Source: Bacillota bacterium
GTDB lineage: Bacteria > Bacillota > Clostridia > Christensenellales > SZUA-584
Assembly (NCBI GenBank): GCA_023391105.1
Contig: JAEWBO010000025.1
Span: forward strand, 92,335 to 156,334
Reading direction: 5' to 3'
DNA length: 64,000 nucleotides
Numbering within the stretch: the stretch's first letter is position 1; every line of letters starts with the position of its first letter. Below, piece after piece: positions 5,692-52,038 of this stretch. The notes under the pieces are model-generated. The model had not been told where the DNA came from, ran no database searches, and saw only the letters and a program-made list of their open reading frames with translations. A program made the position numbers and the translations under genes.

Positions 5692-5723
5692 ATTTTAGAT
5701 TTGAGTTGAAGTGGAGATGTAGA

Positions 5724-7082
5724 ATGAGTAAAAAGTTTAAGTTAAGTTTTCTTGAGAAACCACTTACTTTGTTTGATTTAATCGCTTTCGCTGTCTTATC
5801 GCTTTTCTGTTTTCTGGCATTTGAACAGGGTGCGGATATCGGGCACACCGCAGGCTCATCAATTGCTTATCTTAACGGACATATATTAGATTTTTATGAT
5901 TATAATGTTCAATTTGTCGGCGGTAATGCTTATCTGCCAAGCACGTACATACTATTTGCGATATGGAATATTCCGCTGAGACTTTTTGATATTGTGACGG
6001 TTCCTGGTATTTATACATCGCTCGGCGCCATGCTTTGGTTTAAATTGCTGCCTGTTTTGTTTCATGGGGCGTCAGCCTTTATTTTGTACAAGATTGCTTT
6101 GCAAGTTGGTATGGGTATAAAGAAATCAAAGCTGTGCGCATATTTGTTTTTAACAATGCCAATAGGTTTTTTCAGCCAGTACATATTTGGCCAATATGAT
6201 ATATTCACAGTTTTTTTCATGTTGCTCGGTATTTTGTATTATTATAAAAAAGATTTGTTGCGATTTGCTTTGTTCTTTGGGATATCCCTCACATTTAAGT
6301 ACTTTCCTTTGTTCATTTTTATACCAATGCTACTGCTGTATGAAAAAAGGATTTGGCGCATTATAAAGCATTGCGCTATTGTTTTCATTCCGCTAGCGAT
6401 TGAAATTCTGATGTATTATCCTTCCAACGCGTTCAGAAGCGGCGTTTTTGGATTTGGAGCCAACAACTATATATTTTTAGTCTCATTCAACAACGAATAT
6501 TTTGGGCTTAGTCTGTTCGTTGTGGCCTGGATCGTTCTTTGCGGCTATTCTTTCTTTAAAACAGTAAAGGATGAAGATAATATCAAATGGGTTGTGTTTT
6601 TTTCAAACATTGTGACGTTCCTGCTCTTTGGTCTGTCTATGTGGCATCCACAATGGTTGCTGTTTGGTGTTCCTTTCTGGGTGTTAGGATCTGTTCTAAG
6701 TAGACGTTTTGATATCTTTATGATCATCGAGTTTTTACTTATGGGCGTGTTCATTCTCTATACGACGAATTACTGGGTTGATTGGGTCGATCAAAACATG
6801 TGGAATTACGGCATATTTGGACCATTGCTGGGCGGCCAGGCGAATTCAGCTTTGCAAATGCGGAGTCTATTTATAATAAACAACCGAACCCTGATTTATT
6901 CTGTGTTTTCAGGACTGCTATTGGTTAACGCTTTGTTTAAACATCCAAAATATTGTTCTGAAAAAGTCTCTGAACCGATTGATAATATGTGGGGATATGC
7001 GCGATTCCGTTTCCTTGGAGGCGTTGCTATTTTCATCATTCCAGCCGTCATCTGTTTGGTATCGGTGCTCAGCACCTCTTAG
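5724..7082 (+). CDS. Polytopic integral membrane protein of unassigned family (possible GT-C-type glycosyltransferase or polymerase)
   Basis: 452 aa, hydrophobic along the whole length (many TM segments by eye), with no soluble domain. ATG at 5724 has GGAG 8 nt upstream. It is the first gene of the locus, followed by a GT2 gene and the rml genes. Confidence 0.6.
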   Translation: MSKKFKLSFLEKPLTLFDLIAFAVLSLFCFLAFEQGADIGHTAGSSIAYLNGHILDFYDYNVQFVGGNAYLPSTYILFAIWNIPLRLFDIVTVPGIYTSLGAMLWFKLLPVLFHGASAFILYKIALQVGMGIKKSKLCAYLFLTMPIGFFSQYIFGQYDIFTVFFMLLGILYYYKKDLLRFALFFGISLTFKYFPLFIFIPMLLLYEKRIWRIIKHCAIVFIPLAIEILMYYPSNAFRSGVFGFGANNYIFLVSFNNEYFGLSLFVVAWIVLCGYSFFKTVKDEDNIKWVVFFSNIVTFLLFGLSMWHPQWLLFGVPFWVLGSVLSRRFDIFMIIEFLLMGVFILYTTNYWVDWVDQNMWNYGIFGPLLGGQANSALQMRSLFIINNRTLIYSVFSGLLLVNALFKHPKYCSEKVSEPIDNMWGYARFRFLGGVAIFIIPAVICLVSVLSTS

Positions 7083-12670: not shown

Positions 12671-12699
12671 TTGATTTTATATAGAATATGTTATATGAT
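12671..12699 (+). promoter_or_regulatory. Candidate promoter of the CDP-sugar operon
   Basis: TTGATT (12671-12676), 17-nt spacer, TATGAT (12694-12699), in a very AT-rich 210-bp gap. Confidence 0.35.
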
Positions 12700-12734: not shown

Positions 12735-13508
12735 ATGAAGGTTGTTATACTGGCGGGCGGTTTTGGAACACGCATCAGCGAGGAATCTCACTTGAAGCCT
12801 AAGCCAATGATAGAAATCGGAGAAAAGCCTATACTTTGGCACATTATGAAGGCCTATTCTCACTATGGGTTTATGGATTTCATAATATGTCTCGGCTATA
12901 AAGCTTATGTCATAAAACAATTTTTTGCCGATTATTATCTCCACAATTCCGACATTACCTTTGATTTCTGCAACGGAAACGGCATGAAAATTCATAACAA
13001 TTTTGCTGAGCCGTGGAAAGTCACGCTTGTTGATACCGGGCTGAATACAATGACCGGTGGCCGAATAAAGCGTGTGCGTGATTATATCGGCAATGAGCCG
13101 TTTATGCTGACATATGGTGACGGCGTGAGCAACGTCGATTACTCAAAGCTTGTGGCATTTCATACGAACCATGGTAAAACTGCCACGCTGACGGCTATTC
13201 AACCCGGCGGGCGCTTTGGTCTATTAGAAATCGAGCCGGACAATACTGTTGATCGTTTTTCCGAGAAATCGAAGGAAGATGGCGGATGGATAAACGGCGG
13301 GTTTATGGTGCTCAATCCCGAGATTTTTGATCTTCTCGAAGATGATACAACAGTGTTTGAAAAGAAACCGCTGGAAACACTGGCGGCAACGAACCAGCTT
13401 TGCGCTTATAAGCACGATGGCTTTTGGCAATGCATGGACACCCAGAGGGACAAGCAGCTGCTGGAAGAGCTTTGGGCAAGCGGTGAAGCCCCTTGGAAGG
13501 TCTGGTAA
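12735..13508 (+). CDS. rfbF: Glucose-1-phosphate cytidylyltransferase
   Basis: MKVVILAGGFGTRISEESHLKPKPMIEIGEKPILWHIMKAYSHYGF...GGRIKR...FMLTYGDGVSNVD...HDGFWQCMDTQRDK. Confidence 0.9.
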   Translation: MKVVILAGGFGTRISEESHLKPKPMIEIGEKPILWHIMKAYSHYGFMDFIICLGYKAYVIKQFFADYYLHNSDITFDFCNGNGMKIHNNFAEPWKVTLVDTGLNTMTGGRIKRVRDYIGNEPFMLTYGDGVSNVDYSKLVAFHTNHGKTATLTAIQPGGRFGLLEIEPDNTVDRFSEKSKEDGGWINGGFMVLNPEIFDLLEDDTTVFEKKPLETLAATNQLCAYKHDGFWQCMDTQRDKQLLEELWASGEAPWKVW

Positions 13509-14557
13509 TGAATTTGGGATTTTTCAACGGCAAAAAAGTCTTGGTGACGGGTCATACCGGATTCAAAGGCTCTTGGCTCTGCCGGACTCTTGTTGGCGCA
13601 GGGGCGAAGGTAACGGGTTATTCACTTTTACCTCCGACAACACCGAGCCTCTTTGATGTTTGCGGACTTGAAAGTGAAATAGACAATATTACAGGTGATA
13701 TTCGGGATCTGTCGCATCTGCAATCTGTTTTTAGTAGGTTGAAGCCGGAGATCGTATTGCATCTCGCAGCACAGCCTATTGTGAGAGACAGCTATCAAAA
13801 GCCTGTGTACACTTATGAAACCAATGTCATGGGCACAGTGAACGTTTTGGAATGTGTCCGGCTTTCAGATTGCGTAAGGTCTTTTTTAAATGTGACCACA
13901 GATAAAGTCTATAAAAATAATGAATGGGAATGGGGATATCGCGAGAACGAGCCTCTTGATGGCTATGACCCGTATTCCAATAGCAAGTCCTGCAGCGAGC
14001 TTGTGACTCACAGCTACAAGGAATCATTCTTTGCGGATGGAAGGGTTGCTGTCTCCACTGCCCGTGCCGGTAATGTTATCGGCGGCGGGGATTTTGCGAA
14101 TGATAGGATCATACCGGATTGTGTTAGGGCGGTAATGAAGGGTGAAAAAATCGTTGTTCGTAACCCGCATTCAATAAGGCCGTATCAGCATGTGCTTGAG
14201 CCCCTCGCAGCTTACCTTATGATCGCGCAGGCCCAGTATGAGGATATTTCAAAAAGCGGCTATTATAATGTAGGACCCGATGAATGTGATTGCATCACAA
14301 CGGGGGAGCTTGTTGATTTATTCTGCGGCTTCTGGGGTAAAGGTTTAACATGGGAGAACCGGTTCGTGGGGGGGCCGCATGAAGCCAGATTCCTCAAATT
14401 GGATTGCTCCAAGCTCAAAAACGTGTTTAAATGGCGGCCACGATGGGATGTCGGCACATCGGTGGAAAAAACTGTGGAGTGGACAAAGGTATATATGGAT
14501 GGCGGCGATGTGAAACAATGCATGGACAATCAGGTCGACGCATTTTTTAACAGCTGA
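13508..14557 (+). CDS. rfbG: CDP-glucose 4,6-dehydratase
   Basis: KKVLVTGHTGFKGSWL...HLAAQPIVRDSY...TNVMGTVNVLE...TTDKVYKN...DPYSNSKSCSELV...ARAGNVIGGGD. The ATG at 13508 overlaps the rfbF stop (TAATG). Confidence 0.9.
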   Translation: MNLGFFNGKKVLVTGHTGFKGSWLCRTLVGAGAKVTGYSLLPPTTPSLFDVCGLESEIDNITGDIRDLSHLQSVFSRLKPEIVLHLAAQPIVRDSYQKPVYTYETNVMGTVNVLECVRLSDCVRSFLNVTTDKVYKNNEWEWGYRENEPLDGYDPYSNSKSCSELVTHSYKESFFADGRVAVSTARAGNVIGGGDFANDRIIPDCVRAVMKGEKIVVRNPHSIRPYQHVLEPLAAYLMIAQAQYEDISKSGYYNVGPDECDCITTGELVDLFCGFWGKGLTWENRFVGGPHEARFLKLDCSKLKNVFKWRPRWDVGTSVEKTVEWTKVYMDGGDVKQCMDNQVDAFFNS

Positions 14558-14601
14558 TTATTGTTTAAGACGGATAAAAACATATTCATAGGGAGTAAAT
14601 A

Positions 14602-15945
14602 ATGTTCGAGAAAATGACGGAAGAACAAGCAAAATCGCATATTCTGGCGCTGGTATCCGAATACTGTGACGTTTACCATAAACGTAATAATCAGTTTGAG
14701 GCTGGACAGAGAATCCCCTATGCCTCAAGAATCTATGATCGGGAAGAGATGGTCAATTTGGTTGACAGCTCTCTTGAGTTCTGGCTGACTGCTGGACGGT
14801 ATACCGATTTATTTGAGGAACAGTTTTCTGAGTTTCTTGGCATCAAATATACCGCCCTTGTCAACTCCGGCTCTTCGGCTAATCTTATCGCCTTTATGGC
14901 ATTGACCTCTCCTTTGCTTGGTGAACGCGCTATACGCCGCGGCGATGAGGTAATCACAGCAGCGGCCGGTTTTCCTACCACAGTCGCTCCGATCATTCAA
15001 TATGGTGCTGTTCCTGTATTTATTGATATGACGATCCCTCAATACAACGTTGATGTTTCGCAGCTGGAAAAAGCATTATCGAATAACACCAAAGCCGTTA
15101 TGCTTGCGCATACGCTCGGAAATCCTTTTGACATAAAATCAGTACTGGAATTCTGTAAGAAACATAATCTATGGCTAATCGAAGACAACTGTGACGCGCT
15201 TGGATCGAAGTACACATTAGACGGAAAAGAACAATTTACCGGTACTTTTGGTGACATTGGTACTTCCAGTTTCTATCCTCCGCATCATATGACGATGGGA
15301 GAGGGCGGCGCCGTCTATACGAATGATCCGCTGCTTAACAAGATTATCCGCTCAATGCGTGATTGGGGTAGGGATTGCATGTGTCCTTCGGGTAAGGATG
15401 ACCTTTGCGGACACCGTTTCACCAAAGAATATAAAGATCTGCCTACTGGGTATGATCATAAATACGTATATTCTCATTTTGGCTATAATCTCAAGGCGAC
15501 TGATATGCAGGCGGCCATCGGTTGTGCTCAGCTTGAAAAACTGCCCGGCTTTATCGAAAAGCGTCGTTCCAATTATGATCGTTTAAAAGCGGGACTTGCT
15601 TGTGTAGCGGATAAGCTCATCCTTTCCGAGCCTTGTGAAAACTCCGCTCCCAGCTGGTTTGGATTTTTATTGACTTGTCAACCAAATGCATCGCGAAGGA
15701 CAATCGTCCCGTACATAGAGAGCAAAGGTATTCAGACCCGGATGCTGTTTGCGGGAAATTTGATTAAGCATCCATGCTTTGACGAAATGCGGACCACGAA
15801 TGAAGGTTTCCGTGTGGTTGGTGAACTGAATGCCACTGACAGAATCATGAATGATACCTTCTGGGTGGGTGTTTATCCGGGCATGACCGATCAGATGATC
15901 GACTATATCATCGAGACGATCGCGGATGCCTGTAACAATCTATGA
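14602..15945 (+). CDS. rfbH: CDP-6-deoxy-L-threo-D-glycero-4-hexulose 3-dehydrase (E1; RfbH/DdhC type, DegT family)
   Basis: RIPYASRIYDREEM..., SFYPPHHMTMGEGG (His where aminotransferases have the Schiff-base Lys) and DCMCPSGKDDLCGH (C-X-C-X7-C) with an upstream Cys in EDNCDALG. Confidence 0.9.
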   Translation: MFEKMTEEQAKSHILALVSEYCDVYHKRNNQFEAGQRIPYASRIYDREEMVNLVDSSLEFWLTAGRYTDLFEEQFSEFLGIKYTALVNSGSSANLIAFMALTSPLLGERAIRRGDEVITAAAGFPTTVAPIIQYGAVPVFIDMTIPQYNVDVSQLEKALSNNTKAVMLAHTLGNPFDIKSVLEFCKKHNLWLIEDNCDALGSKYTLDGKEQFTGTFGDIGTSSFYPPHHMTMGEGGAVYTNDPLLNKIIRSMRDWGRDCMCPSGKDDLCGHRFTKEYKDLPTGYDHKYVYSHFGYNLKATDMQAAIGCAQLEKLPGFIEKRRSNYDRLKAGLACVADKLILSEPCENSAPSWFGFLLTCQPNASRRTIVPYIESKGIQTRMLFAGNLIKHPCFDEMRTTNEGFRVVGELNATDRIMNDTFWVGVYPGMTDQMIDYIIETIADACNNL

Positions 15946-16364
15946 AGATCGTTGACTGGGTAAAAAAGGTTTTTGGCGATAAGCGCATACGGTTTTTATT
16001 CGTTGGAGGACTTAATACGGCGGTTGGATACGGGTTCTACGCGTTGTTTATTTCTATAGGGCTGGATCCTTATGTAGCCACAACGTTATCAACGGTTCTT
16101 GGTGTGATAAACAGTTATTTTTGGAACAAGTATTTTACATTCAGACAGCCAAAGAAGTCGTTGTCCGAGATCTTGCGTTTTGTGCTTGTATATGCCATAA
16201 GTTATGGTGCTAATTTGGGGCTCGTATATGTGTTCATTGACATGCTTGGCATGAACTCATACTTATCCGGCGTGATATGCCTTTTTGTCACCACGATTGT
16301 AAGCTACGTGGGACATAATTTCTTTAGCTTCAAAAACAGATCGAAAAAGGAAGCCAACGTATGA
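15942..16364 (+). CDS. GtrA-family membrane protein
   Basis: 140 aa with 4 TM segments. RFLFVGGLNTAVGYGFYALF...INSYFWNKYFTF...VSYVGHNFFSF. ATGA overlap with the rfbH stop. Confidence 0.85.
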   Translation: MKIVDWVKKVFGDKRIRFLFVGGLNTAVGYGFYALFISIGLDPYVATTLSTVLGVINSYFWNKYFTFRQPKKSLSEILRFVLVYAISYGANLGLVYVFIDMLGMNSYLSGVICLFVTTIVSYVGHNFFSFKNRSKKEANV

Positions 16365-17278
16365 AGAAGGTTGTGATCACGGGTCCCACGGGCTGCATTG
16401 GTGTGGCCTTGAGCAGGGCGCTTTTGGCAGACGGTTGTGAGGTGTATGCGGTATGCCGCCCAAACTCGCCAAACATCAGGCTCCTGCCGGTTCATTTGTC
16501 TATCCATGTGGTGGAAAGCGATATAAAGGATTTGAGCCTTTTGGCGTCCCGCCTTGGCGGCGGTTTTGACGTGTTCTTTCATCTTGCTTGGTCGGGCACG
16601 TTTGGTGCTGATAGGAACGACGCGCAGAGGCAATTAAAAAATGTAAAGTATACGCTTGATGCTGTGAAGCTGGCAAAGGACATCGGATGCAGGATGTTTA
16701 TCGGCGCCGGTTCACAAGCCGAATATGGACATTTTGACAGACCGGCAGACGATACGCTGGTACCCAAGCCATTTACGTTCTATGGGGCTGCGAAGCTTTC
16801 GGCTGGACAGATGAGCCGTGTTTATGCAAATCAGATTGGTATTGCACATGCATGGGTTCGCATTTTCAGCATATACGGACCCGGTGATGATAAAAACACA
16901 CTTGTCCATTTATTGATTCGGGAGCTGCTTGCAGACGGTTCTCCTGCCCTTACAGCAGGGGAGCAGACTTGGGATTATCTTTACAGCGATGATGCGGCGA
17001 AGGCCTTGGCTGCGGTTGCCGAATCCGGGAAGGACGGCAGTGTCTATAATCTCGGATCGGGTGAACAACGCGTATTAAAGGAATATATCTCCATAATCAG
17101 AGATATTGTCAGTCCTAAAACCGTACTTCGGCTTGGAGATAGACCCTATGGTCAGGATCAAGTGATGTATTTGAGCGCGGACATAAACAAGCTGAAGAAC
17201 GATACAGGTTTTGTCCCCAAAACCACGTTTGATGAGGGTGTGAAACAGACGCTTAAAGCGATCGTATCGGAGGAATAA
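16361..17278 (+). CDS. NAD(P)-dependent extended SDR (CDP-4-keto-dideoxyhexose reductase candidate; RfbS/RfbJ/YerF-like)
   Basis: VVITGPTGCIGVAL Rossmann motif and the YGAAK catalytic Yxxx K. At 305 aa it is similar in size to CDP-paratose/abequose synthases. 4-nt overlap with gtrA. Markedly higher GC than its neighbours. Confidence 0.75.
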   Translation: MKKVVITGPTGCIGVALSRALLADGCEVYAVCRPNSPNIRLLPVHLSIHVVESDIKDLSLLASRLGGGFDVFFHLAWSGTFGADRNDAQRQLKNVKYTLDAVKLAKDIGCRMFIGAGSQAEYGHFDRPADDTLVPKPFTFYGAAKLSAGQMSRVYANQIGIAHAWVRIFSIYGPGDDKNTLVHLLIRELLADGSPALTAGEQTWDYLYSDDAAKALAAVAESGKDGSVYNLGSGEQRVLKEYISIIRDIVSPKTVLRLGDRPYGQDQVMYLSADINKLKNDTGFVPKTTFDEGVKQTLKAIVSEE

Positions 17279-17286
17279 CGGAATTA

Positions 17287-19095
17287 ATGAAAATTAAGTT
17301 ATCGGATTATTTATCAAATATACTTGCGGATAAAGGTATTGAACATGTTTTTACGGTGACGGGTGGCGGTGCCATGCATTTAAATGACGCTTTTGGCAAC
17401 AACGAGCGTTTGAAATGCGTTTATAATCACCATGAGCAGGCTTGCGCCATCGCAGCAGAAGGCTACTATAAGGCCGTCCGAAAGATGCCGGTCGTTTGCG
17501 TCACGACTGGCCCCGGGGGGACCAATGCACTGACAGGTGTGCTGGGGGCGTGGCTTGACTCTGTCCCAATGATGGTTATCTCGGGACAGGTCAAGTTTGA
17601 GTGTACGATCGCGTCCACAGATGTGCCGCTGCGCCAGCTTGGCGATCAGGAGTTTAATATTGTGGATATCGTACGTCCCATGACGAAATACGCCTGCATG
17701 GTGACAGATCCCAATAAGATTCTCTATCATGTAGAAAAAGCGTTATATATCGCGACTCATGGGCGCCCTGGCCCAGTGTGGCTGGACATACCTCTTAACG
17801 TTCAGGCGGCTGTGATTGAGACAGACGACCTTGTCCGGTATTCAGAGACAGAGGACGAAGCGTTGCTTCCTCCCCGAGTTTCTTCCGATACGATACAAAA
17901 AGTGATAGACAAGCTGAAAGCCGCAAAAAAGCCTGCCATCATTGCAGGGACAGGCATATGGCTGTCCGATGGCAAGCAGATATTTGATCGTGCGGCAGAG
18001 CAGCTTAATATTCCGGTAATGACGGCCTGGGGTAATCATGATCTCATCCCCAACGATCATCCTTTATATGCTGGTCGTCCGGGTACTGTGGGTACGCGCG
18101 GCGGTAATTTTGTCTTTCAGACATGTGACGTGCTTTTGGTGCTCGGCTGCCGTATGAATTTGCGTCAGATCGGCTATGTGTGGGATCAGGTTGCGCCAGA
18201 AGCGTATAAGATCATGGTCGATATTGATCCGGCTGAGCTTAGTAAGAGCACGTTTAAACCCGATATGCCCATCTTTGCGGATGTGAAAGATTTTCTCAAT
18301 AAAATATATGAAGCAGGGTTTGTCAAAGAAGGCAAGCAGCATGAAAAGTGGTTGGTATGGTGCCGTGATATTAACCTGAAGTATAATTACGACGCATATA
18401 CAAGCGAAGACAGAGTCAACCCTTATGCTTTTATCACAAGCATGTTCAACAAGCTGCCCGAAAATCAATTGGTCGTTGCTTCGAATGGGTCTGCCTGCGT
18501 TGTGACTTTTCAGGCGGGCACCATGAAAAAAGGACAGCGTGTTTTTACCAACAGCGGATGCGCCTCTATGGGATATGGCTTGCCTGCTTCTATTGGAGCA
18601 TGCGTGGGCAGCGGATACAAAAGCACCATTTGCCTTGAGGGTGATGGCAGCCTTCAGATGAACATACAGGAGCTGCAGACGGTGATACATAACAGACTGC
18701 CTATTAAAATTTTTGTGTTTGAAAATCAAGGGTATCATTCGATAAGGCAAACACAAAGCAACTTCTTTAAAGGTAGATTCGCCGGAGTGGACAGAGAATC
18801 GGGTGTAAGCTTTCCCGATCTCGAAAAGATTGCCAATGCTTATGGGTATCCTTTCTACACCATATCCAGTGAAGAAAATATGGAAACGGTTTTGGAAGAT
18901 GTATTGAGATGTGATGGGCCGCTGATTTGTGAGGTGCGGCTAAGTATAGAGCAGAGCTTCGAACCTAAGTCATCGTCAAAGCTGCTGCCAGATGGAAAAA
19001 TGGTATCAATGCCATTGGAGGATATGTTCCCATTTCTATCGGAAGAAGAAATGACCCAAAACAATTATAAATGTGATGAGGAGGGCCAATTATGA
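17287..19095 (+). CDS. Thiamine-diphosphate-dependent enzyme, acetolactate-synthase-like (YerE-like candidate)
   Basis: VFTVTGGGAMHL, HEQACAIAAEGY, VTTGPGGTNALTG and the C-terminal ThDP/Mg motif EGDGSLQMNIQEL...FENQGY. 602 aa. Confidence 0.85.
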   Translation: MKIKLSDYLSNILADKGIEHVFTVTGGGAMHLNDAFGNNERLKCVYNHHEQACAIAAEGYYKAVRKMPVVCVTTGPGGTNALTGVLGAWLDSVPMMVISGQVKFECTIASTDVPLRQLGDQEFNIVDIVRPMTKYACMVTDPNKILYHVEKALYIATHGRPGPVWLDIPLNVQAAVIETDDLVRYSETEDEALLPPRVSSDTIQKVIDKLKAAKKPAIIAGTGIWLSDGKQIFDRAAEQLNIPVMTAWGNHDLIPNDHPLYAGRPGTVGTRGGNFVFQTCDVLLVLGCRMNLRQIGYVWDQVAPEAYKIMVDIDPAELSKSTFKPDMPIFADVKDFLNKIYEAGFVKEGKQHEKWLVWCRDINLKYNYDAYTSEDRVNPYAFITSMFNKLPENQLVVASNGSACVVTFQAGTMKKGQRVFTNSGCASMGYGLPASIGACVGSGYKSTICLEGDGSLQMNIQELQTVIHNRLPIKIFVFENQGYHSIRQTQSNFFKGRFAGVDRESGVSFPDLEKIANAYGYPFYTISSEENMETVLEDVLRCDGPLICEVRLSIEQSFEPKSSSKLLPDGKMVSMPLEDMFPFLSEEEMTQNNYKCDEEGQL

Positions 19096-19871
19096 ATATT
19101 CTCGAAAGAAAGATGTTGGATGCGCTCACGGAGCTCAAAGAGAAGTATAACGTCTATGGCATTAAAGCTGAGTTCGAAGCCGAAGGGACCAGAACGGAAG
19201 ATCTGATTAAGCTCCAATATGTCGTGGCCAAAGCAGGGTTGAAAATATGTATGAAAATCGGTGGTTGTGAGGCGGTGCGAGACATCGATCAATGCAAGCT
19301 TTTTAATATTAATGCGGTGATGGCTCCGATGATTGAATCTGCCTTTGCGATGAAGAAATTCATTGGCGCTTGCAACAAGGTCTACAATGCGGAAGGGCAA
19401 TATGATAAAGTAGACAAAGTTGTCAACCTTGAGACAATCAATGCCTTTCATTGCATGGACGAGATTTTTGAGACTGGCAAGGGCTTTTTGGACTCGGTTG
19501 TGGTTGGCAGAGTCGATTTTTCTGCATCTTTAGGACTTTCACGCAGTGAAATCAACTCGGACATCGTATTGGATTACACAAGAAAAGTATGTGCAAAGGC
19601 AAAGGAATACGGCTATATATCGTCCTTTGGCGGCGGTGTGTCCGCTGAGGTTGTGCCCTTTGTTGAAGCAATGAAGGACGTTTTAGACCGTTTTGAGACA
19701 CGCAAGGTCATTTTCCCGATTGAGGATATTGGTAACAAGCCTGAGCTTGCCATAAATAAAGCGGTTGAATTTGAATATTATTACCTGAAAAATAAGTTCG
19801 ATTATTATTATGGTATGGCTTCCGAGGATGCGACAAGACTTAAAATGCTGGAAGAGCGAATGGATAAATAA
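19092..19871 (+). CDS. HpcH/HpaI aldolase / citrate-lyase-beta-like (PEP/pyruvate-domain superfamily) protein
   Basis: GIKAEFEAEGTRTEDL...INAVMAPMIESAFAMKKF...VVGRVDFSASLG resembles the HpcH-type (V/A)PM(V/I)ES motif. The family call is from memory and the substrate is unknown. ATGA overlap with the ThDP gene. Confidence 0.5.
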   Translation: MNILERKMLDALTELKEKYNVYGIKAEFEAEGTRTEDLIKLQYVVAKAGLKICMKIGGCEAVRDIDQCKLFNINAVMAPMIESAFAMKKFIGACNKVYNAEGQYDKVDKVVNLETINAFHCMDEIFETGKGFLDSVVVGRVDFSASLGLSRSEINSDIVLDYTRKVCAKAKEYGYISSFGGGVSAEVVPFVEAMKDVLDRFETRKVIFPIEDIGNKPELAINKAVEFEYYYLKNKFDYYYGMASEDATRLKMLEERMDK

Positions 19872-20521
19872 TGAGTATAGTTCGATATCATAATATCTTT
19901 TTTGACTTTGACGGAACCATTGCCGATTCCAGCCCCGGGATTATTGAGTGCGTGAAGCACGCGATTTCCTGCGCTGACATGGATTGTCCATGTGAGGAAA
20001 GTATCAAATCCATCATTGGTCCGACATTACCCACAATGATAAGGACGCTGTATCCGGATATTGATCAGAAACGGTTCGATATCATGTTTCGTGAGTATAG
20101 AGAGCATTATAAGACAGCAGGCGTCAGTGGTGTCGTGCTGTATGATGGGATAAACGAACTGTTGTGTGAGCTTCACCGACAAGGGAAAAGGCTGTTTGTT
20201 GTGTCATCAAAACCGCAGAAATATCTTCGGCAGATATGTGCGAACTGTTCGTTATCAGATTTGTTCGAGGATATAATCGGCGTGGATCTTACCACAGATC
20301 CTTTGAGCAAGACGAGGTTATTGGCTGATTTGCTGGAAGCCAATCAGGTAGATAAAAGCAGTTCAGTCATGGTGGGCGATACGATGTCTGATATTAAGGC
20401 CGCTCAGGAGAACGGAATAGACAGTATTGGTGTGACGTTCGGATTCGGTGCTTTTGAGGAGCCCTTTGTCCCCACATATTTATGCCATTCAGCAGATGAA
20501 TTGGCAGCGCTATTGAAATAG
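19871..20521 (+). CDS. HAD-IA family phosphatase (phosphoglycolate-phosphatase-like)
   Basis: FFDFDGTIADS (DxDGT motif I), VVSSKP (motif II), VGDTMSDIKAAQENG (motif III/IV). TAATG overlap with the preceding gene. Confidence 0.8.
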   Translation: MSIVRYHNIFFDFDGTIADSSPGIIECVKHAISCADMDCPCEESIKSIIGPTLPTMIRTLYPDIDQKRFDIMFREYREHYKTAGVSGVVLYDGINELLCELHRQGKRLFVVSSKPQKYLRQICANCSLSDLFEDIIGVDLTTDPLSKTRLLADLLEANQVDKSSSVMVGDTMSDIKAAQENGIDSIGVTFGFGAFEEPFVPTYLCHSADELAALLK

Positions 20522-20530
20522 AAAGGGTCA

Positions 20531-21490
20531 ATGCATATGAAAACGGTCAGTGTGGTTGTACCATGCTACAATGAGGAAGAAAACGTTATACCCATGTATG
20601 AGGCCATTCGGGCAACCATGACAGAATCGCTGCCGGAATATAACTATGAAATTATCTTTATTGATAACAAATCAAAGGACCGGACGAGGGATAAAATTCG
20701 CATAGCCTGTGAGCGGGATATAAATGTGAAGGCAATATTGAACGCAAAGAATTTCGGGCAGTTCAATTCTCCGTATTACGGCGTGACGCAGGCAACCGGT
20801 GATTGTGTCATTTTAATCAGCTGCGATTTTCAGGATCCTGTGGACATGATTCCAAAGTATGTGGCCGAGTGGGAAAATGGCTTTAAGATTGTGATTGGCA
20901 TCAAGACCACAAGCAAAGAAAACAGGATCATGTATTTCCTAAGGTCATGCTATTATAAGCTGGTCAAACGTATTTCTGAAGTGGAACAGATCGAACATTT
21001 CACGGGCTTTGGTCTTTATGATAAGGATTTTGTACGTGTTTTGGCCAAGCTGGAGGATCCGGCACCCTTTTTAAGGGGAATTGTCGCGGAGCTTGGCTAT
21101 GAGCGCAAAGAAATACCTTACGAGCAGGCCAAACGGCGTGCCGGAAAAACAAGTAATAACTTTTATAAGCTGTATGATGGTGCAATGCTTGGTATCACAT
21201 CATACTCAAAAGTGCCCTTGCGTATTGCGACCATGCTTGGTTTTATCTTCTCTGCTATCAGCCTTGTGGTAGCGCTTGTCTATTTTGTATTAAAGCTTAT
21301 TTACTGGGATCGTTTTCCCGCGGGCACAGCGCCTATTCTTATTGGTATATTTCTGATAGGGTCTATACAGATTTTCTTCATTGGATTATTGGGCGAGTAT
21401 GTGTTGAATATGAATACGAGGGTGATGAAAAGGCCGCTTGTGGTAGAGGAACAGCGGATAAATTTTGATAGTAAGCCGGAGGAAAAATGA
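20531..21490 (+). CDS. GtrB/CsbB/ArnC-type GT2 polyprenyl-phosphate glycosyltransferase
   Basis: VSVVVPCYNEEENV, IIFIDNKSKDRTRD, LISCDFQDP, and two C-terminal TM helices (LRIATMLGFIFSAISLVVALVYFV; APILIGIFLIGSIQIFFIGLLGEYV). An alternative ATG is at 20537. Confidence 0.85.
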   Translation: MHMKTVSVVVPCYNEEENVIPMYEAIRATMTESLPEYNYEIIFIDNKSKDRTRDKIRIACERDINVKAILNAKNFGQFNSPYYGVTQATGDCVILISCDFQDPVDMIPKYVAEWENGFKIVIGIKTTSKENRIMYFLRSCYYKLVKRISEVEQIEHFTGFGLYDKDFVRVLAKLEDPAPFLRGIVAELGYERKEIPYEQAKRRAGKTSNNFYKLYDGAMLGITSYSKVPLRIATMLGFIFSAISLVVALVYFVLKLIYWDRFPAGTAPILIGIFLIGSIQIFFIGLLGEYVLNMNTRVMKRPLVVEEQRINFDSKPEEK

Positions 21491-21554: not shown

Positions 21555-21960
21555 GTGTAAACTCGAAAGAGCGTAAGAAAAAGCGTGAGCCGCACGACGG
21601 CTTACCCATCTTGGGTGCATAATAGCGGAAACGGCCGGGCATGTCAAGGGCGACCATTAGGTCGTATATTTTACCCATGACCTGTCCCTGCCGTTTCTGC
21701 TACTCAGGAAGCCTGTCTGCAAAGAATATCTCCAATTGCGAATGAATTGCCCCAATCTTTTCGACGTCCTGCCCATTTCTTTATGATATCCATCATGGCC
21801 AGATTCAGCATTTACAGCAGGCTATCGTCAGTCGGGAATACCGACTTGGCCTTGGTCCTCTGCGCAGCTGGCGGTTGAAATTCTCAATGGCATTCTTGGT
21901 GTAAATAAGCGTACGTACCTGCTTCAAAGCGGTGGACTCCATGATATGTTTCCGAACGTT
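21555..21960 (-). mobile_element. IS256-family (Mutator-type) insertion-sequence relic: terminal segment plus C-terminal transposase pseudogene
   Basis: The minus strand reads ...LIYTKNAIENFNRQLRR / TKAKSVFPTDDSLL*MLNLAMMDIIKKWAGRRKDWG / IHSQLEIFFADRLPE* (stop at 21700). This is the conserved C-terminus of IS256-type transposases, broken by at least 2 frameshifts and one in-frame TAA. Only about 85 of about 400 codons remain. Confidence 0.7.
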
Positions 21961-22251: not shown

Positions 22252-24111
22252 TCATGGATTCCTTACATAATTACACAATTTATTAACATTGTCGATTGAA
22301 AATTCTTGCACAAGAATATATCCATTATCTTGAATGAATTGTTGTAAAAACTCCTGCATTTGTCTTTGTTTGCTTGCTTCGTCGTTTCTAAACAGATGTT
22401 CATGCCCAGCCATCACCCATTCTTTGATAAACATGATGCTGAGTACTTTTGGTTTTTTCTCTTGAATAGTTTGCATATCTTGTTCCAATGCAGCATCTGA
22501 AGAAACATCAAACCACTGAACATATGAATAAGTAAATGGCTTTCTGTCGGCAATTAAATAAAAGATCGGATTATGGGGGAACGTGAAAAGCAAATCTTCT
22601 TCGCTCAGATATTCTTGATAAAGTGAATATGTGCCCTCATACAGCGCTTCCGTACTACTGGATACCTTTAAACCTTTCAGGTATGGAACGTTATCAATTT
22701 CTTGTGTCATCGTATCGGTATTATACTCATACATTCCCCACCATGTATAAGGTATGATATTTTTATGGGAAACAAAAACACCAATCATAAGTCCGCACAA
22801 TAATATCAAAAATAGTTTAATTCGTTGCCTATAAGCATCTCCGACTAATTTAAATAGCAGAGCTGAAATAATCCCCAAGGCCAAACAAGTCTCTCCAATG
22901 CTTAACCCAGCAGATGTGCCAGCTCCGAAACCTAATGTGAGCACAACGCCTTGGAGAACGATAAAGGAGACTAACCAAGTGAGATCTTCATGCCTTCTTA
23001 TCTTTTTGATAAGGAATATCAAACTAATCACAAATAACACAATAATCACCACATATATTGTAATGGGCATATTATCCAAAATGATTAACTTGTTTAGATA
23101 ATAAGAAACATATAGCGAGATAAGTGTTAATGCGATTCCGGTACTGGTTATTGCTGCAAATGCAATGCCTATTATTGAATTAAACCTCTCATCTGAATCA
23201 TTTATAACTTTGAAGCTTTTAATTAGATAGGCGATGATAAGAGTTAATAATAAACAAAATATCTGGCATTTTAGCTGCAATATTGAAGGAACTAGTCGTA
23301 TGACCCAATCAAAAAGCACCGTAGCCATACCGCCTTTGGCAGCAAGCGCATTTGAAAAAGTACTTTGAATAAACGCATCAAGACTACCATTTAATAAAAG
23401 AAAACCAGCCTGAAAAACAATAGGAAGAGAAACGCTAAGTATATATATTACAAGGATACGTAAATATTTTTTTGACCGAAAGATAATAGACAAACATAAG
23501 ATGGACATAATTATAAATAGGACAAAAATTGCGCCGCTGCTTTGCCTTGTTAAAAAACTAAGACCAGAAAAAAAACCACAAAGCAAAGAATATAGATATA
23601 TCTTTCTTTTTCTGCCTTCTTTAAATAACCATATAATCATAAAGAGCATAAAAGCTGATAAGTACACAAACAGGTCAAATATTCTAATGTAATCATATGC
23701 AATAAATACGCTTTCGGATTGAAGAAAGAAGACCGATGTTAATGACGAAATCATAGAAATAAGCGGTGAGAACATCTTGTTAAATATTAGATAGAAAAGC
23801 GCGGAGATTGAAACAAATACTATAACCCCAAATAACCTTAGAGTTACGATATCGTAACCGAAAACTTTTGTAATTAATGTAATAACATAAGTATATATTG
23901 GTGTGAATAACAACTCAAAATCTTTATATGGTGATAACCCGCTATTTATACTTTTGGCATAAACCGAATACCAACCCTCACTTATTGGAAGAGTGTTCCT
24001 GTATGTTAACAACATATAAAATAGAGACACCAAAACTGATAAAACGAGGAAAATAGATTTATTGTGTTTTATAATATATGATATTGCTTTCTCTTTTGTA
24101 AAGCCGTTCAT
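22252..24111 (-). CDS. GT-C-fold membrane glycosyltransferase candidate (GT39/GT83, PMT_2/ArnT-like)
   Basis: 619 aa. More than 10 TM segments by eye, then a soluble C-terminal domain of about 170 aa. The first loop ISEGWYSVYAKSINSGLSPYKDFELLFTPIYTY resembles the (D/E)E..Y...A....G..PY.DF loop of PMT_2-type enzymes. It is the only large minus-strand gene in the locus and is about 30% GC. Confidence 0.65.
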   Translation of the reverse strand: MNGFTKEKAISYIIKHNKSIFLVLSVLVSLFYMLLTYRNTLPISEGWYSVYAKSINSGLSPYKDFELLFTPIYTYVITLITKVFGYDIVTLRLFGVIVFVSISALFYLIFNKMFSPLISMISSLTSVFFLQSESVFIAYDYIRIFDLFVYLSAFMLFMIIWLFKEGRKRKIYLYSLLCGFFSGLSFLTRQSSGAIFVLFIIMSILCLSIIFRSKKYLRILVIYILSVSLPIVFQAGFLLLNGSLDAFIQSTFSNALAAKGGMATVLFDWVIRLVPSILQLKCQIFCLLLTLIIAYLIKSFKVINDSDERFNSIIGIAFAAITSTGIALTLISLYVSYYLNKLIILDNMPITIYVVIIVLFVISLIFLIKKIRRHEDLTWLVSFIVLQGVVLTLGFGAGTSAGLSIGETCLALGIISALLFKLVGDAYRQRIKLFLILLCGLMIGVFVSHKNIIPYTWWGMYEYNTDTMTQEIDNVPYLKGLKVSSSTEALYEGTYSLYQEYLSEEDLLFTFPHNPIFYLIADRKPFTYSYVQWFDVSSDAALEQDMQTIQEKKPKVLSIMFIKEWVMAGHEHLFRNDEASKQRQMQEFLQQFIQDNGYILVQEFSIDNVNKLCNYVRNP

Positions 24112-26999: not shown

Positions 27000-28391
27000 A
27001 TGTTCCAACAGGAAAGCAAGTTAAATAGGGCAACATACTTAATGCTGATCATATTGATATGCGAGTGTGTAGTAGGATCCAGTGGCCGATGGTTGGAGAT
27101 AGGAAGTTTAAGTATTCGGATGTTACTTTTTGGCATTACATTTATTTTATCGTTGCCGTTTGTAATTCGAGATGTATTGAGGTTGATTAAAAATAAGGTC
27201 ATATTCTCGATACTTGTATTTGGATTATTCGTTTGTTTTTCACTAATATATGGGTATATAAAAAATAATAATCTACAATATCTTACTGCAGATTTGACCA
27301 GTATGCTTTTTTTATTGATTGTTCCTGGTTGTATAGCTATTTTTAATACTTCTCAACGAATAGACAATCTCATTAAGTATGCGAGTTATGCTTCTATCTT
27401 GCTAGCAATTGTAACGATTATTCTACATTTTGCATTATTATGGATTGGTGATGATGCAGTTAATCACATTGAACACTTTCTTGTTTCTAAAAGCCTAGGT
27501 GGTTTCTTTAATTTCGGTGATGGAATTAGCAGGATTTATTTCAGAAGCTCAATATGCTTTGTTTTACCCTTTTTCTATGGATTGTACGCTATTATAAAAC
27601 ATAAAAATGATGAAGTTAGAAAGAAACAAATATTGCCATACTTTTTTATGTCGATAAGTTTTATAGCGATTATTCTTACATTTACGCGTTCAATATGGTT
27701 TGGAGTTTTCGTCGCAACTATATTGTTCTTTGTTATTAATATGAAACAATATAAAGCATTCTTTAAGGGGATTGTTATTACATTGGCGGGCTTTATAATA
27801 TTCGTTGCCATTTCATGGATATGCTTTGGGTTTGAAGGTATTATCAAAAATGCAGTAGGAAGAGTACTTCTTGGCTATAATTATTCTGTTTCTTTGAGTG
27901 ATATTGAGGAAGGGAATTCGGAAATAGTTGAAACAGAGACTGATGCAGAGCCGTATAGTTTTGAAGAACGACAGAAAGATATCGCAATAAACTCAGAAGC
28001 AGTCAGAAATGATAGACTAAATGCTGTGGCAGAAGAAATAAGAGAAAATTGGTTGTTGGGTGGTGGCTTTGGATTAACTCTTGACCTTGATATATATGAA
28101 GGAAAAGTGGAATACACCTATATGGATGTCTTTAGCAAGATGGGTATATTCGGGCTGATTTCAATTATTGTCATGCTGCTTATGCCAGTGTATCAGTTAT
28201 ATAAAAAGCATAGGCAGGGGGAATATAACGGTGCAATGGGAATATTGATGTGTGTGATGATCTGCATATATATGGCGTCTTACTATAATCCGTTCATTAC
28301 ATCACCTATTGGGTTTGCGTTATTTGCCTTATTTGTAGCATCGGTATCTCTAAAACCACCAAAAGACGCTCTATCCATACAACCTAAGTAG
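27000..28391 (+). CDS. O-antigen polymerase/ligase-family membrane protein (Wzy-like)
   Basis: 463 aa, about 10-12 TM segments. It has a TFTRSIWFGVFVATILFF segment and a large hydrophilic loop (residues about 290-350) typical of the Wzy_C / O-antigen ligase family. Confidence 0.7.
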   Translation: MFQQESKLNRATYLMLIILICECVVGSSGRWLEIGSLSIRMLLFGITFILSLPFVIRDVLRLIKNKVIFSILVFGLFVCFSLIYGYIKNNNLQYLTADLTSMLFLLIVPGCIAIFNTSQRIDNLIKYASYASILLAIVTIILHFALLWIGDDAVNHIEHFLVSKSLGGFFNFGDGISRIYFRSSICFVLPFFYGLYAIIKHKNDEVRKKQILPYFFMSISFIAIILTFTRSIWFGVFVATILFFVINMKQYKAFFKGIVITLAGFIIFVAISWICFGFEGIIKNAVGRVLLGYNYSVSLSDIEEGNSEIVETETDAEPYSFEERQKDIAINSEAVRNDRLNAVAEEIRENWLLGGGFGLTLDLDIYEGKVEYTYMDVFSKMGIFGLISIIVMLLMPVYQLYKKHRQGEYNGAMGILMCVMICIYMASYYNPFITSPIGFALFALFVASVSLKPPKDALSIQPK

Positions 28392-30199: not shown

Positions 30200-31195
30200 A
30201 TGGTCGAGGTAAATATGATAAGTATACTTGTTCCGATATACAATGCCGAGCAGTACATAAAGCGATGCATTGATTCTATACTTGCACAAACATATATGGA
30301 TTTTGAGCTTATTTTGTTGGATGACGGGTCTAAAGATAATAGTGGCACCATATGTGATGAATATGCGGCAAAGGATAGTCGGGTTAAAGTCATACACACA
30401 TCAAACAATGGTGTAGGAATTGCGCGCAACCGGTTAATCGACGCAGCTGACGGCGATTATTTATGTTTTGTTGATAGTGATGATTATATTGAACGTGATA
30501 TGCTGGAGGTTCTTTATCATAACATAATACAATATGGTGCCGACATATCTTTATGCGGTATACGCATGATATTCCCCAAAATTGTGAAAAGCAGCAATAA
30601 CGACCCGTCAGAACAGAGGTTACTCAATAAGAAAGAAGCTGTTTGCGAGCTGATTGATAACTGGAAAATTACTTGTAGTACTTGGAGTAAATTGTACAAA
30701 GCTGAGTTGTTTGAGGGAATACGGTATGCGGAAATAGCAGCATTTGAAGACATGTTAACTACATACAAACTATTTCAAAAAAGTGAATCTATAGTGTATG
30801 ATGGGCGACTGCTCTATAACTATGTGAATACACCGGATAGCTTGATGAGGATCAAATTCAATCCTCATCATTTTGCTGAGCTTGAAGCTTTAAAAATGAT
30901 GACTGAGAATATTGGTGCTGCCTATCCAGATTTGATTCCAAAGCTTAAAATAAACGAGCTAAAAACAAAAGTATATATATGTAACCGGATTATTTCTGAA
31001 TCTCCGGAAATGAGCCAATTATATAATGATTTAGCGGCAGAAATAAGGGATAGTCATAAAGAACTGATGAGATCTGAATATGTGGGCACGAAAGTAAAAA
31101 TTATGGTTGCCATTATGAAAACAAGTGACAGGCTATATAAAGCCTGTGTAAAGACAGTGAAGTATATTGTCAACGGTAGAAGAAGGCACGCATGA
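30200..31195 (+). CDS. Glycosyltransferase family 2
   Basis: ISILVPIYNAEQYIKRCIDSILAQTYMDFELILLDDGSKDNS...NNGVGIARN...FVDSDDY. An alternative ATG is at 30215. Confidence 0.85.
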   Translation: MVEVNMISILVPIYNAEQYIKRCIDSILAQTYMDFELILLDDGSKDNSGTICDEYAAKDSRVKVIHTSNNGVGIARNRLIDAADGDYLCFVDSDDYIERDMLEVLYHNIIQYGADISLCGIRMIFPKIVKSSNNDPSEQRLLNKKEAVCELIDNWKITCSTWSKLYKAELFEGIRYAEIAAFEDMLTTYKLFQKSESIVYDGRLLYNYVNTPDSLMRIKFNPHHFAELEALKMMTENIGAAYPDLIPKLKINELKTKVYICNRIISESPEMSQLYNDLAAEIRDSHKELMRSEYVGTKVKIMVAIMKTSDRLYKACVKTVKYIVNGRRRHA

Positions 31196-35788: not shown

Positions 35789-35796
35789 GGTGGATC

Positions 35797-44233: not shown

Positions 44234-44238
44234 TTAAT

Positions 44239-51989: not shown

Positions 51990-52038
51990 AATATATCGCC
52001 TTTCCTTTATAGATTTTATGTAAACGGGACCCATCCGT

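Follow-up and report, generated by a model that had tools for sequence, protein, structure and literature searches.

The 64,000-nucleotide (nt) stretch of DNA analyzed here, referred to as the window, comes from a Christensenellales bacterium of the phylum Bacillota (contig JAEWBO010000025.1 of assembly GCA_023391105.1, positions 92,335 to 156,334). Between positions 12735 and 21490 it contains an operon of nine co-directional genes on the + strand, which encode, in order, RfbF, RfbG, RfbH (E1), a GtrA protein, an extended short-chain dehydrogenase/reductase (SDR), a thiamine diphosphate (ThDP)-dependent enzyme resembling acetolactate synthase, an HpcH-like protein, a HAD phosphatase, and a GtrB-type transferase. 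This operon probably specifies a 3,6-dideoxyhexose with a carbon branch at C4, a class of sugar previously known from yersiniose A and a few longer-branched relatives.

Organization of the operon

Every internal junction of the nine-gene unit is either an overlap or a gap of at most 44 nt, the largest gap being that between rfbG and rfbH (14557 to 14602). Overlaps of 4 nt each join rfbH to gtrA (15942-15945), gtrA to the SDR gene (16361-16364), and the ThDP gene to the HpcH-like gene (19092-19095), and the HpcH-like and HAD genes share a single nucleotide (19871). The overlaps claimed in the first-pass annotation of this DNA (at 15942, 16361, 19092, and 19871) are exact in the list of open reading frames (ORFs), and the motifs that it quoted, TTGPGGTNALTG and GDGSLQMN...ENQG in the ThDP enzyme and YGAAK in the SDR, are all found in the translations. 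The same nine genes are present in identical order on an independent metagenome contig (L081/L082), whose proteins are 75-85% identical to those of the window (75% for the ThDP enzyme and 85% for the HpcH-like protein). Because the order recurs on this independent contig, the arrangement is not the product of chance.

A gap of 212 nt precedes rfbF and contains a promoter-like site (12671-12699) with a weak match to consensus. Consensus scans also place a terminator-like hairpin after the operon (21650-21665, + strand) and a second hairpin (21602-21588, - strand) that would serve the convergent gene for a GT-C-like protein. The promoter and terminator scans return counts near or below those expected from shuffled sequence, and these sites are thus weak hints. 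An Rfam scan of the whole 64-kb window revealed no RNA element, and no riboswitch is evident.

Predicted synthesis of the acceptor sugar

The first three genes encode the steps to a cytidine diphosphate (CDP)-linked 4-keto sugar. The product of rfbF (12735-13508, + strand) is a glucose-1-phosphate cytidylyltransferase, which makes CDP-glucose (TIGR02623 equivalog, 416 bits with a cut-off of 300); that of rfbG (13508-14557, +) is a CDP-glucose 4,6-dehydratase (TIGR02622 equivalog, 438 bits with a cut-off of 278); and that of rfbH (14602-15945, +) is the E1 enzyme, a pyridoxamine phosphate- and [2Fe-2S]-dependent CDP-6-deoxy-4-hexulose 3-dehydrase (NF011936 equivalog, 709 bits with a cut-off of 423). 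The mechanically called ORF for rfbG starts at a TTG at 13493, whereas in the public annotation of the source contig the gene begins at the ATG at 13508, giving a 1-nt overlap with rfbF. Within RfbH lie C197, the motif C259-x-C261-x7-C269, and the sequence YPPHH, whose His occupies the place of the pyridoxal phosphate-binding lysine of aminotransferases of the same fold. We take the cysteine motif and the His in place of lysine to be hallmarks of an E1 dehydrase, as in the E1 of Yersinia.

RfbF and RfbG would convert glucose-1-phosphate to CDP-4-keto-6-deoxyglucose, and RfbH would then drop the 3-hydroxyl to yield CDP-4-keto-3,6-dideoxy-D-glucose. For this part of the pathway the gene assignments are equivalog-level matches, and the chemistry is carried over from the Yersinia enzymes. 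In the YerE/YerF pathway, the same CDP-4-keto-3,6-dideoxy-D-glucose is the acceptor for the branch (PMC9306805).

The ThDP enzyme

The candidate C-branching enzyme is a 602-residue YerE-like ThDP-dependent carboligase (17287-19095, +) composed of the PF02776, PF00205, and PF02775 domains, whose best match in the PDB is JanthE (8RPH). Its best NCBIfam score, 363 bits, is to an acetohydroxyacid synthase (AHAS) model, TIGR00118, and falls well below the cut-off of 538; the remaining AHAS models give 257-334 bits against cut-offs of 738-1084. The models for Xsc and glyoxylate carboligase score lower than those for AHAS, with Xsc at 215 bits against a cut-off of 620. When solved structures are ranked, 8RPH (393 bits) is followed by 5AHK (260 bits), which we take to be PpYerE, and then by E. 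coli AHAS I (252 bits). Identity is 34% to JanthE over 592 residues, 32% to PpYerE, 30% to E. coli AHAS I, and 29% to Arabidopsis AHAS. The alignment with JanthE reaches residue 590 and takes in a C-terminal tail that is absent from the AHAS alignments. The HHEQ sequence, containing the catalytic glutamate, and GDGSLQMN...ENQ align with both JanthE and AHAS. A neighbor-joining tree with only four references and no support values places the ThDP family alongside JanthE and PpYerE and separates it from the AHAS enzymes of E. coli and Arabidopsis. No gene for an AHAS small subunit is present in or beside the operon, which is flanked by a DUF3048 gene upstream and by the convergent GT-C gene downstream.

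Judged by sequence, these comparisons rule out a housekeeping AHAS, while membership in the YerE group is unproven by sequence alone. The first-pass annotation had implied that this protein, although acetolactate synthase-like, was not a housekeeping enzyme, a view upheld by the TIGR00118 score, by JanthE as the closest structure, and by the linkage to rfbF and rfbH described below. JanthE itself, from Janthinobacterium sp. HH01, is a YerE-like enzyme that couples 2-oxo acids to ketones, and the donors it accepts range from C3 acids to branched and hydroxylated ones (PMC12188165, PMC12247030).

Conserved context in related loci

Relatives of the ThDP enzyme with 55-65% identity number in the thousands in metagenomes. 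A scan of one genome per species yielded 80 loci (designated by L numbers) whose ThDP enzymes are 49-60% identical to that of the window; 79 of these, from named genomes, were counted as independent, and 42 are well flanked, with at least 8 kb on both sides of the ThDP gene. ORFs were called in every locus and clustered, and recurrent families were named by Pfam and NCBIfam. Hosts among the Firmicutes include Lachnospiraceae, Clostridium sp. LP20, C. thailandense, Murimonas intestini DSM 26524, Christensenella intestinihominis, and Paenibacillus sp. P8, and homologous clusters are common in the genomes of Clostridia and Paenibacillus. Beyond the Firmicutes, hosts include Treponema, Bacteroidales, Smithella and other deltaproteobacteria, and Methanomassiliicoccaceae archaea.

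Across many phyla, rfbF or rfbH accompanies the ThDP gene in 35 of the 42 well-flanked loci (83%), and a GtrB-type gene whose product is 50-70% identical to that of the window is found in 34 of the 42. In most related loci an extended SDR gene (40-49% identity to the window SDR) lies directly 3' of the ThDP gene, and in 22 a GtrA gene is located within the sugar operon. The minimal arrangement is RfbF-RfbG-RfbH-(GtrA)-ThDP-SDR-GtrB. Such minimal loci encode one enzyme that would use the 4-ketone and one extra reductase, and thus match exactly what YerE plus YerF require. That the ThDP enzyme acts on CDP-4-keto-3,6-dideoxyhexose as a C-branching enzyme is well supported on these sequence grounds, the conserved linkage being the strongest evidence. 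The core of the first-pass prediction, a branched 3,6-dideoxyhexose, is likewise well supported by this context, in which the SDR and GtrB genes are usually adjacent.

Two side observations concern individual loci. In L028, a second ThDP paralogue (12404 onward) is 41% identical to PpYerE (5AHK) and groups with PpYerE rather than with the main family. Two metagenome-assembled genomes (MAGs) of Methanomassiliicoccaceae, L039 and L047, contain RfbF-RfbH-ThDP-SDR, to which L039 adds HAD, HMGL, DHQS-like, and GT87 genes; these archaeal cassettes imply either transfer between bacteria and archaea or an error of binning.

The slot for a candidate aldolase and the candidate phosphatase

The gene that overlaps the end of the ThDP gene (19092-19871, +) encodes a divergent protein of the HpcH/HpaI superfamily (PF03328, a weak 36 bits), a candidate class II 2-oxo-acid aldolase that would supply the branch donor. 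A profile of its family matches YfaU and HpaI (E = 3e-6), and two invariant residues, E114 (in NLET) and D142 (in GRVDFS), align with the VQVES and GPADLS segments of YfaU/HpaI, presumably the metal-ligand sites of HpcH/HpaI aldolases. Its AlphaFold2 model (pLDDT 92) is a TIM barrel of the HpcH/HpaI type, and the top Foldseek matches are to class II pyruvate aldolases, led by SwHKA, HpaI, HpcH, and YfaU (E ~1e-8; TM ~0.58, within 0.55-0.60). The next gene (19871-20521, +) encodes a HAD-IA phosphatase with DFDGT and GDTMSD motifs (HAD_2, 121 bits), a candidate for a dephosphorylation step in donor synthesis; its best NCBIfam matches are phosphoglycolate phosphatases, below cut-off.

Across the 79 independent loci, the slot adjoining the ThDP gene accommodates interchangeable genes. 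It is occupied in 35 loci by a 535-residue HMGL-family protein, DmpG/BphI-like, with best NCBIfam matches to 4-hydroxy-2-oxovalerate aldolase; in 14 by an HpcH-like protein; and in 6 by a NeuB-like protein (L015, L050, L054, L069, L073, L075). The remaining 24 contain no aldolase-type gene. All three kinds of slot gene belong to families that form 2-oxo acids, and the NeuB-like genes suggest that 3-deoxy-2-ulosonic acids serve as branch donors in those six loci.

Three kinds of gene were counted as removing phosphate, namely HAD-IA, HAD-IIA, and a sugar phosphate phospholyase related to AroB (TIGR04425, 448 bits). Of the 55 loci that contain an aldolase-type gene, 39 also have a gene of this sort, whereas the 24 loci that lack an aldolase-type gene have none (Fisher p = 8e-10). 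This co-occurrence indicates that the HAD gene belongs with the aldolase and not with the sugar-nucleotide core. The trio of ThDP, HpcH-like, and HAD genes recurs in L001 (a Syntrophomonas MAG), in L044 (an Anaerolineaceae MAG), and in L081/L082. In the neighbor-joining tree, the ThDP enzymes of loci with no aldolase-type gene form a largely separate clade, and the window enzyme lies outside it. There are 21 alignment columns that split the no-aldolase enzymes from the rest, and the window enzyme has the no-aldolase residue at 2 of the 21; this comparison is confounded by phylogeny and was not counted as evidence on donor size.

A different role for the HAD protein, as a beta-phosphoglucomutase-like supplier of glucose-1-phosphate to RfbF, was considered and discarded, given that such genes track the aldolase-type gene rather than rfb.

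Other arrangements were seen at the slot. A classical SDR gene paired with the phospholyase gene (cyclizing type; TIGR04425, above cut-off) lies beside the aldolase-type gene, adjoining the ThDP gene or close to it, in 16 listed loci (L005, L008-L011, L020, L021, L025, L031, L032, L039, L052, L056, L062, L067, L069), and this pair could eliminate phosphate to leave a terminal deoxy group or could form a carbocycle. In L052, L053, L056, and L067, the ThDP gene is succeeded by HpcH-like paralogues in tandem, which share about 40% identity with the protein of the window.

The SDR and the candidate lipid-carrier genes

The extended SDR (16361-17278, +; PF01370, 124 bits; GPTGCIG and YGAAK motifs; no equivalog match) is a candidate YerF-like reductase of the branch carbonyl. 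Two other operon genes point to delivery by a lipid carrier. The gtrA-family gene (15942-16364, +; PF04138, 99 bits) encodes a small membrane protein, a candidate flippase for a lipid-linked sugar, and the last gene (20531-21490, +; PF00535; public call start 20537) encodes a GtrB-type GT2 polyprenyl-phosphate glycosyltransferase. The best NCBIfam matches of the latter, PgfS (184 bits) and ArnC (117 bits), both below cut-off, are undecaprenyl-phosphate sugar synthases, and the protein has two C-terminal hydrophobic segments (residues 228-246 and 263-281) and a GtrA partner in the same operon. Both here and in many relatives, the genes for GtrA and GtrB form part of a CDP-sugar operon, which implies that the GtrB-type enzyme takes the CDP-linked branched sugar as its donor.

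Convergent with the operon is a gene (22252-24111, -) for a 619-residue polytopic GT-C-like membrane protein, with a weak PMT_2 match (28 bits), at least 11 hydrophobic segments, and then a soluble C-terminal part. It is a candidate extracytoplasmic transferase, and a relative with 34% identity is encoded 8 kb from the ThDP gene in L009. Elsewhere in the window, a 458-residue protein (5706-7082) with a marginal GT87 match (E = 7e-4), encoded just 5' of GT2 and rml genes, could be another GT-C-type transferase; GT87-like proteins are encoded near the ThDP gene in 13 related loci.

Proposed pathway

Taken together, these features are best read as an operon for the synthesis of a C4-branched, CDP-activated 3,6-dideoxyhexose and for its transfer to a lipid carrier, from which it would be added to a cell-surface glycan, a reading to which we give a probability of roughly 0.55. 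The acceptor would be made by RfbF, RfbG, and RfbH. For the donor, the co-occurrence of aldolase and phosphatase genes suggests that the HpcH-like and HAD proteins together produce a 2-oxo acid that is hydroxylated and longer than pyruvate. In the likeliest course, the aldolase would join pyruvate to a phosphorylated aldehyde and the HAD enzyme would then dephosphorylate the product, or else the phosphatase would free the aldehyde first. The YerE-like enzyme, to judge from its context and its similarity to JanthE, would decarboxylate this acid and add the resulting acyl group to the C4 ketone to form a tertiary alcohol, and the SDR may reduce the branch carbonyl in the manner of YerF. By analogy with three-component glycosylation systems, the GtrB-type enzyme would move the sugar from CDP to undecaprenyl phosphate, GtrA would flip it, and the GT-C protein would attach it to the wall polysaccharide specified by the surrounding rhamnose/ABC-transporter/Wzx-Wzy locus.

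Much of this route parallels the scheme of Steitz et al. (2022), which has been tested in part. There, the aldolase encoded beside the ThDP gene produces a hydroxylated 2-oxo acid for a YerE-like enzyme to couple to CDP-4-keto-3,6-dideoxyglucose, after which a YerF-like reductase completes the branch (PMC9306805). A branch longer than the two carbons of yersiniose is argued because the aldolase gene adjoins the ThDP gene, as it does in the published aldolase-fed pathways, and the product is expected to resemble erwiniose, caryophyllose, or gastriose rather than yersiniose. A more specific version can be put forward only tentatively. In this version the product would be an undescribed higher-carbon sugar, a 3,6-dideoxyhexose whose C4 polyhydroxyalkyl branch of at least three carbons derives from a phosphorylated 2-keto-3-deoxy acid; the sugar would be delivered by GtrB, GtrA, and GT-C and would belong to a combinatorial family.

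Points against the proposal and alternative readings

Several observations weigh against the proposed pathway. No E3 (FNR-like) reductase gene was found in the 64-kb window by tblastn with the E3-like protein of L052, and among related loci such a gene lies directly 3' of rfbH in only five: the deltaproteobacterial MAGs L052, L053, L056, and L067, plus L065. With no E3 encoded nearby, the electrons for RfbH would come from a general cellular reductase. On the first-pass placement of the ThDP enzyme with YerE, rather than with AHAS or Xsc, the evidence is mixed: the profile scores below the AHAS and Xsc cut-offs and the tree grouping with JanthE and PpYerE agree with it, but by sequence alone PpYerE, at 32% identity, is no closer to the enzyme than is E. 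coli AHAS I, at 30%. The HpcH-like protein is only 13-18% identical to characterized class II aldolases. In HpaI, Arg70 is the catalytic arginine that polarizes the 2-oxo acid; in the HpcH-like protein, whose N-terminal half does not align by sequence, an invariant Lys55 that closes the third strand lies roughly where this arginine would be expected. The SDR, which has no equivalog match, might instead be a C4 ketoreductase. We know of no GtrB-type enzyme that uses a CDP-sugar, and the GT-C gene is on the opposite strand, its tie to the operon being one of position. The physiological substrates of JanthE have not been identified (PMC12188165). Finally, the literature yielded no glycan structure or enzymology for any of the homologous clusters of Clostridia and Paenibacillus, and nothing relevant on Christensenella glycan structures or on branched sugars in Firmicutes.

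The most durable alternative is a yersiniose-type branch, in which the ThDP enzyme would add a C2 acetyl group from pyruvate, the SDR would reduce it to a hydroxyethyl group, and the HpcH-like and HAD proteins would be unrelated or peripheral. This was the branch predicted by the first-pass annotation, and it is now considered unlikely, since an aldolase gene adjoins the ThDP gene. YerE/YerF is the founding precedent for such chemistry (PMC9306805, PMC12247030), pyruvate is among the donors accepted by JanthE (PMC12188165), and the roughly 24 of 79 related loci with no aldolase-type gene probably use a common metabolite such as pyruvate. However, the window enzyme is not a member of the clade that holds most of the enzymes from those loci. 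Moreover, the ThDP, HpcH-like, and HAD genes overlap in the window, the trio is kept in other loci as described above, and in the published systems the adjacent aldolase supplies the donor, with ErwE failing to accept pyruvate (PMC9306805).

An unbranched product is quite improbable. Clusters for 3,6-dideoxyhexoses normally end with a reductase of the paratose/abequose synthase type, and the SDR, with no specific family assignment, could be such a CDP-4-keto-3,6-dideoxyhexose 4-reductase, leaving the ThDP, HpcH-like, and HAD trio to make a separate small molecule or a non-sugar substituent. The rfbF/rfbH linkage in 83% of the well-flanked loci, with the usual order ThDP-SDR-GtrB, is hard to explain unless the ThDP enzyme has a role in the sugar, and the minimal loci described above hold, beyond RfbF/G/H and GtrB, exactly the YerE and YerF complement.

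Slightly less probable again is a reversed order of events, in which the acetyl group of pyruvate is added first, the HpcH-like aldolase extends it by aldol addition on the sugar nucleotide, and the HAD enzyme trims off the phosphate. Sequence data leave the order unfixed, but the nucleophile of class II HpcH-type aldolases is generally understood to be a 2-oxo acid and not a methyl ketone borne by a nucleotide sugar. This order of events was formally considered by Steitz et al. ahead of their experiments, which ruled it out for ErwE, as that enzyme does not take pyruvate (PMC9306805).

Finally, it is very improbable that the 602-residue protein is an ordinary acetolactate/acetohydroxyacid synthase or Xsc-type enzyme present by chance: its best NCBIfam matches are AHAS large-subunit models and its relatives are publicly annotated as acetolactate synthase, but every AHAS and Xsc score is far under cut-off, neither the operon nor its immediate flanks hold a small-subunit gene, and the ThDP gene is translationally coupled within a sugar operon whose rfb linkage is conserved.

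The surrounding glycan locus

The region is a rhamnose-type cell-wall polysaccharide locus. Upstream of the operon are genes for RNase J, YceG, a U32 peptidase, a polytopic membrane protein, a GT2, RmlD/A/C/B, and the DUF3048 protein. The RNase J shares 85-86% identity with proteins of MAGs named Christensenellaceae or Christensenellales, which points to a host among the Clostridia, probably in the Christensenellales. Downstream, a low-GC stretch (~22000-46000; 34-40% GC compared to ~50% in the flanks) forms the variable part of the locus, and its composition suggests a horizontally exchanged island. It contains many GT2 genes along with genes for a Wzy-like protein (27000-28391), a Wzx-like protein (31192-32733), a WbsX transferase (32730-33845), an ABC-2 transporter pair (35010-36531), and giant multi-domain transferases (36561-38507, and 38523-42002 with GT2-GT2-GT4 domains). 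An FnlA/FnlC/RmlD-like trio (43202-46232), in which a dehydratase of the Polysacc_synt_2 family is joined by a protein resembling UDP-GlcNAc 2-epimerase and by an RmlD-like reductase, looks like an FnlA/FnlB/FnlC-type pathway to a 2-acetamido-2,6-dideoxy-L-hexose, which would be a second unusual sugar in the locus. An IS200-family (Y1) transposase gene (46437-46859) marks the right-hand edge of the island. Christensenella has been reported to stain Gram-negative, and "Gram-positive" is used here for the phylum and not for the staining.

Farther to the right lie ordinary neighbors that are unrelated to the operon. These include a fucose isomerase gene (50223-52082, -) with genes for a LacI regulator and an FGGY kinase nearby, and a gene (59260-61023, -) for an NlpC/P60 peptidoglycan hydrolase with four PG_binding_1 repeats.

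Implications

C-branched higher sugars are rare and strongly antigenic, and their known sources so far are a few Gram-negative and mycobacterial surface glycolipids. If the operon works as proposed, branched sugars are also made by common gut Clostridia, including the Christensenellales, which are often associated with host health, and their placement on the wall would expose them to phages, antibodies, and lectins. On the more specific, tentative version given above, this would be the first CDP-activated sugar shown to travel by the GtrB/GtrA/GT-C lipid-carrier route onto the wall polysaccharide of a gut Christensenellales bacterium, and it would stand for a large uncharacterized family spanning gut Clostridia, Paenibacillus, Treponema, Bacteroidales, deltaproteobacteria, and Methanomassiliicoccaceae. 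The donor modules (HpcH-like, DmpG-like, and NeuB-like, each with a phosphatase or phospholyase) would then be swappable, giving a combinatorial set of branched sugars, and the comparison of loci makes the testable prediction that the gene adjacent to the ThDP gene sets the branch. Each variant has carriers among cultured strains, namely Christensenella intestinihominis AF73-05CM02, Murimonas intestini DSM 26524, Clostridium sp. LP20, C. thailandense PL3, and Paenibacillus sp. P8. For biocatalysis, the family offers a large and so far unexploited supply of ThDP carboligases that accept ketones, each with its own donor-forming aldolase as partner.

Comparison with known systems

The Yersinia cluster for yersiniose A has an E3 reductase, which the window operon lacks, and its sugar joins the O-antigen by way of cytoplasmic transferases. 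The Yersinia YerE pathway uses pyruvate as the donor of a C2 branch and has no aldolase or phosphatase, whereas the window adds HpcH-like, HAD, GtrA, and GtrB proteins. What the two share is the plan: in YerE/YerF of Yersinia pseudotuberculosis O:VI, as in the window, CDP-glucose genes are followed by an acetolactate synthase-like ThDP enzyme and an NAD(P)H reductase, the candidate for which in the window is the SDR (PMC9306805).

YerE/YerF had been regarded in the first-pass annotation as the only precedent, and the aldolase-like gene as having no counterpart. Neither statement holds, since ErwE, MMAR_2332, and MyGE have also been studied, each with an aldolase partner: ErwI (BphI-like) for ErwE, MMAR_2331 (aldolase/citrate-lyase family) for MMAR_2332, and MygI for MyGE (PMC9306805). 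These enzymes belong to the pathways for erwiniose (ErwE/F/I/J, Pectobacterium atrosepticum), caryophyllose (MMAR_2331/2332, Mycobacterium marinum), and gastriose (MyGE/MygI/MygF, M. gastri), which share the logic of the window in that the aldolase encoded beside the ThDP gene makes a hydroxylated 2-oxo acid, this acid becomes the branch, and a reductase follows. By family description, MMAR_2331 belongs to the same Pfam family as the HpcH-like protein of the window (PMC9306805). The ErwI type (BphI/DmpG) is represented in 35 related loci but not in the window. The hosts of these long-branch sugars are Gram-negatives and mycobacteria, which carry them in lipopolysaccharide or lipooligosaccharide, and the accounts found in the literature for these pathways mention no phosphatase partner and no GtrA/GtrB lipid-carrier step. 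The proposed phosphatase step tied to the aldolase, the predicted GtrB/GtrA/GT-C route, and the wide spread of the cassette in gut Clostridia and beyond appear to be new. More broadly, an in-silico survey (Krug et al. 2024, as cited in PMC12247030) reports more than 200 YerE-like clusters.

Among individual ThDP enzymes, JanthE differs from the window enzyme in having CDG in its ThDP motif in place of the canonical GDG, and it falls outside the family of 49-60% identity that holds the window enzyme. The AHAS large subunit (IlvB/IlvG/IlvI) has in common with the window enzyme the three-domain fold, the HHEQ glutamate, the GDG...N motif, and about 30% identity; the window enzyme is set apart from it by scores below cut-off, the lack of a small-subunit gene, the sugar-operon setting, and a C-terminal segment shared only with JanthE.

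For delivery, the parts of the three-component systems GtrA/GtrB/GtrC, CsbB/GtcA/YfhO, and ArnC/ArnT match the GT2, GtrA, and polytopic GT-C proteins of the window, and extracytoplasmic glycosylation of this kind has been described for Gram-positive wall polymers (PMC8035078, PMC9574508, PMC11127046). The known donors of such systems are UDP-Glc, UDP-GlcNAc, UDP-Ara4FN, and a compound derived from phosphoribosyl pyrophosphate, whereas in the window GtrB and GtrA are encoded within an operon for a CDP-sugar.

For the donor acid, a parallel is found in the KdsA/KdsC route and in the pairing of Neu5Ac-9-P or KDN-9-P synthase with a phosphatase. In routes of this type, which are standard for free 3-deoxy-2-ulosonic acids, the condensing enzyme takes an aldehyde or sugar that bears a phosphate, and the 2-oxo acid is afterward released by a HAD phosphatase. 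The co-occurrence of aldolase and HAD genes resembles these pairs, and NeuB-like genes share the slot in six loci. The window pair consists of an HpcH-type aldolase and a HAD-IA protein, whereas the KdsA/KdsC type combines a phosphoenolpyruvate-dependent synthase with a KdsC-type HAD. By this analogy, a condensing enzyme working in tandem with a HAD phosphatase would be the best model for the HpcH-like/HAD pair.

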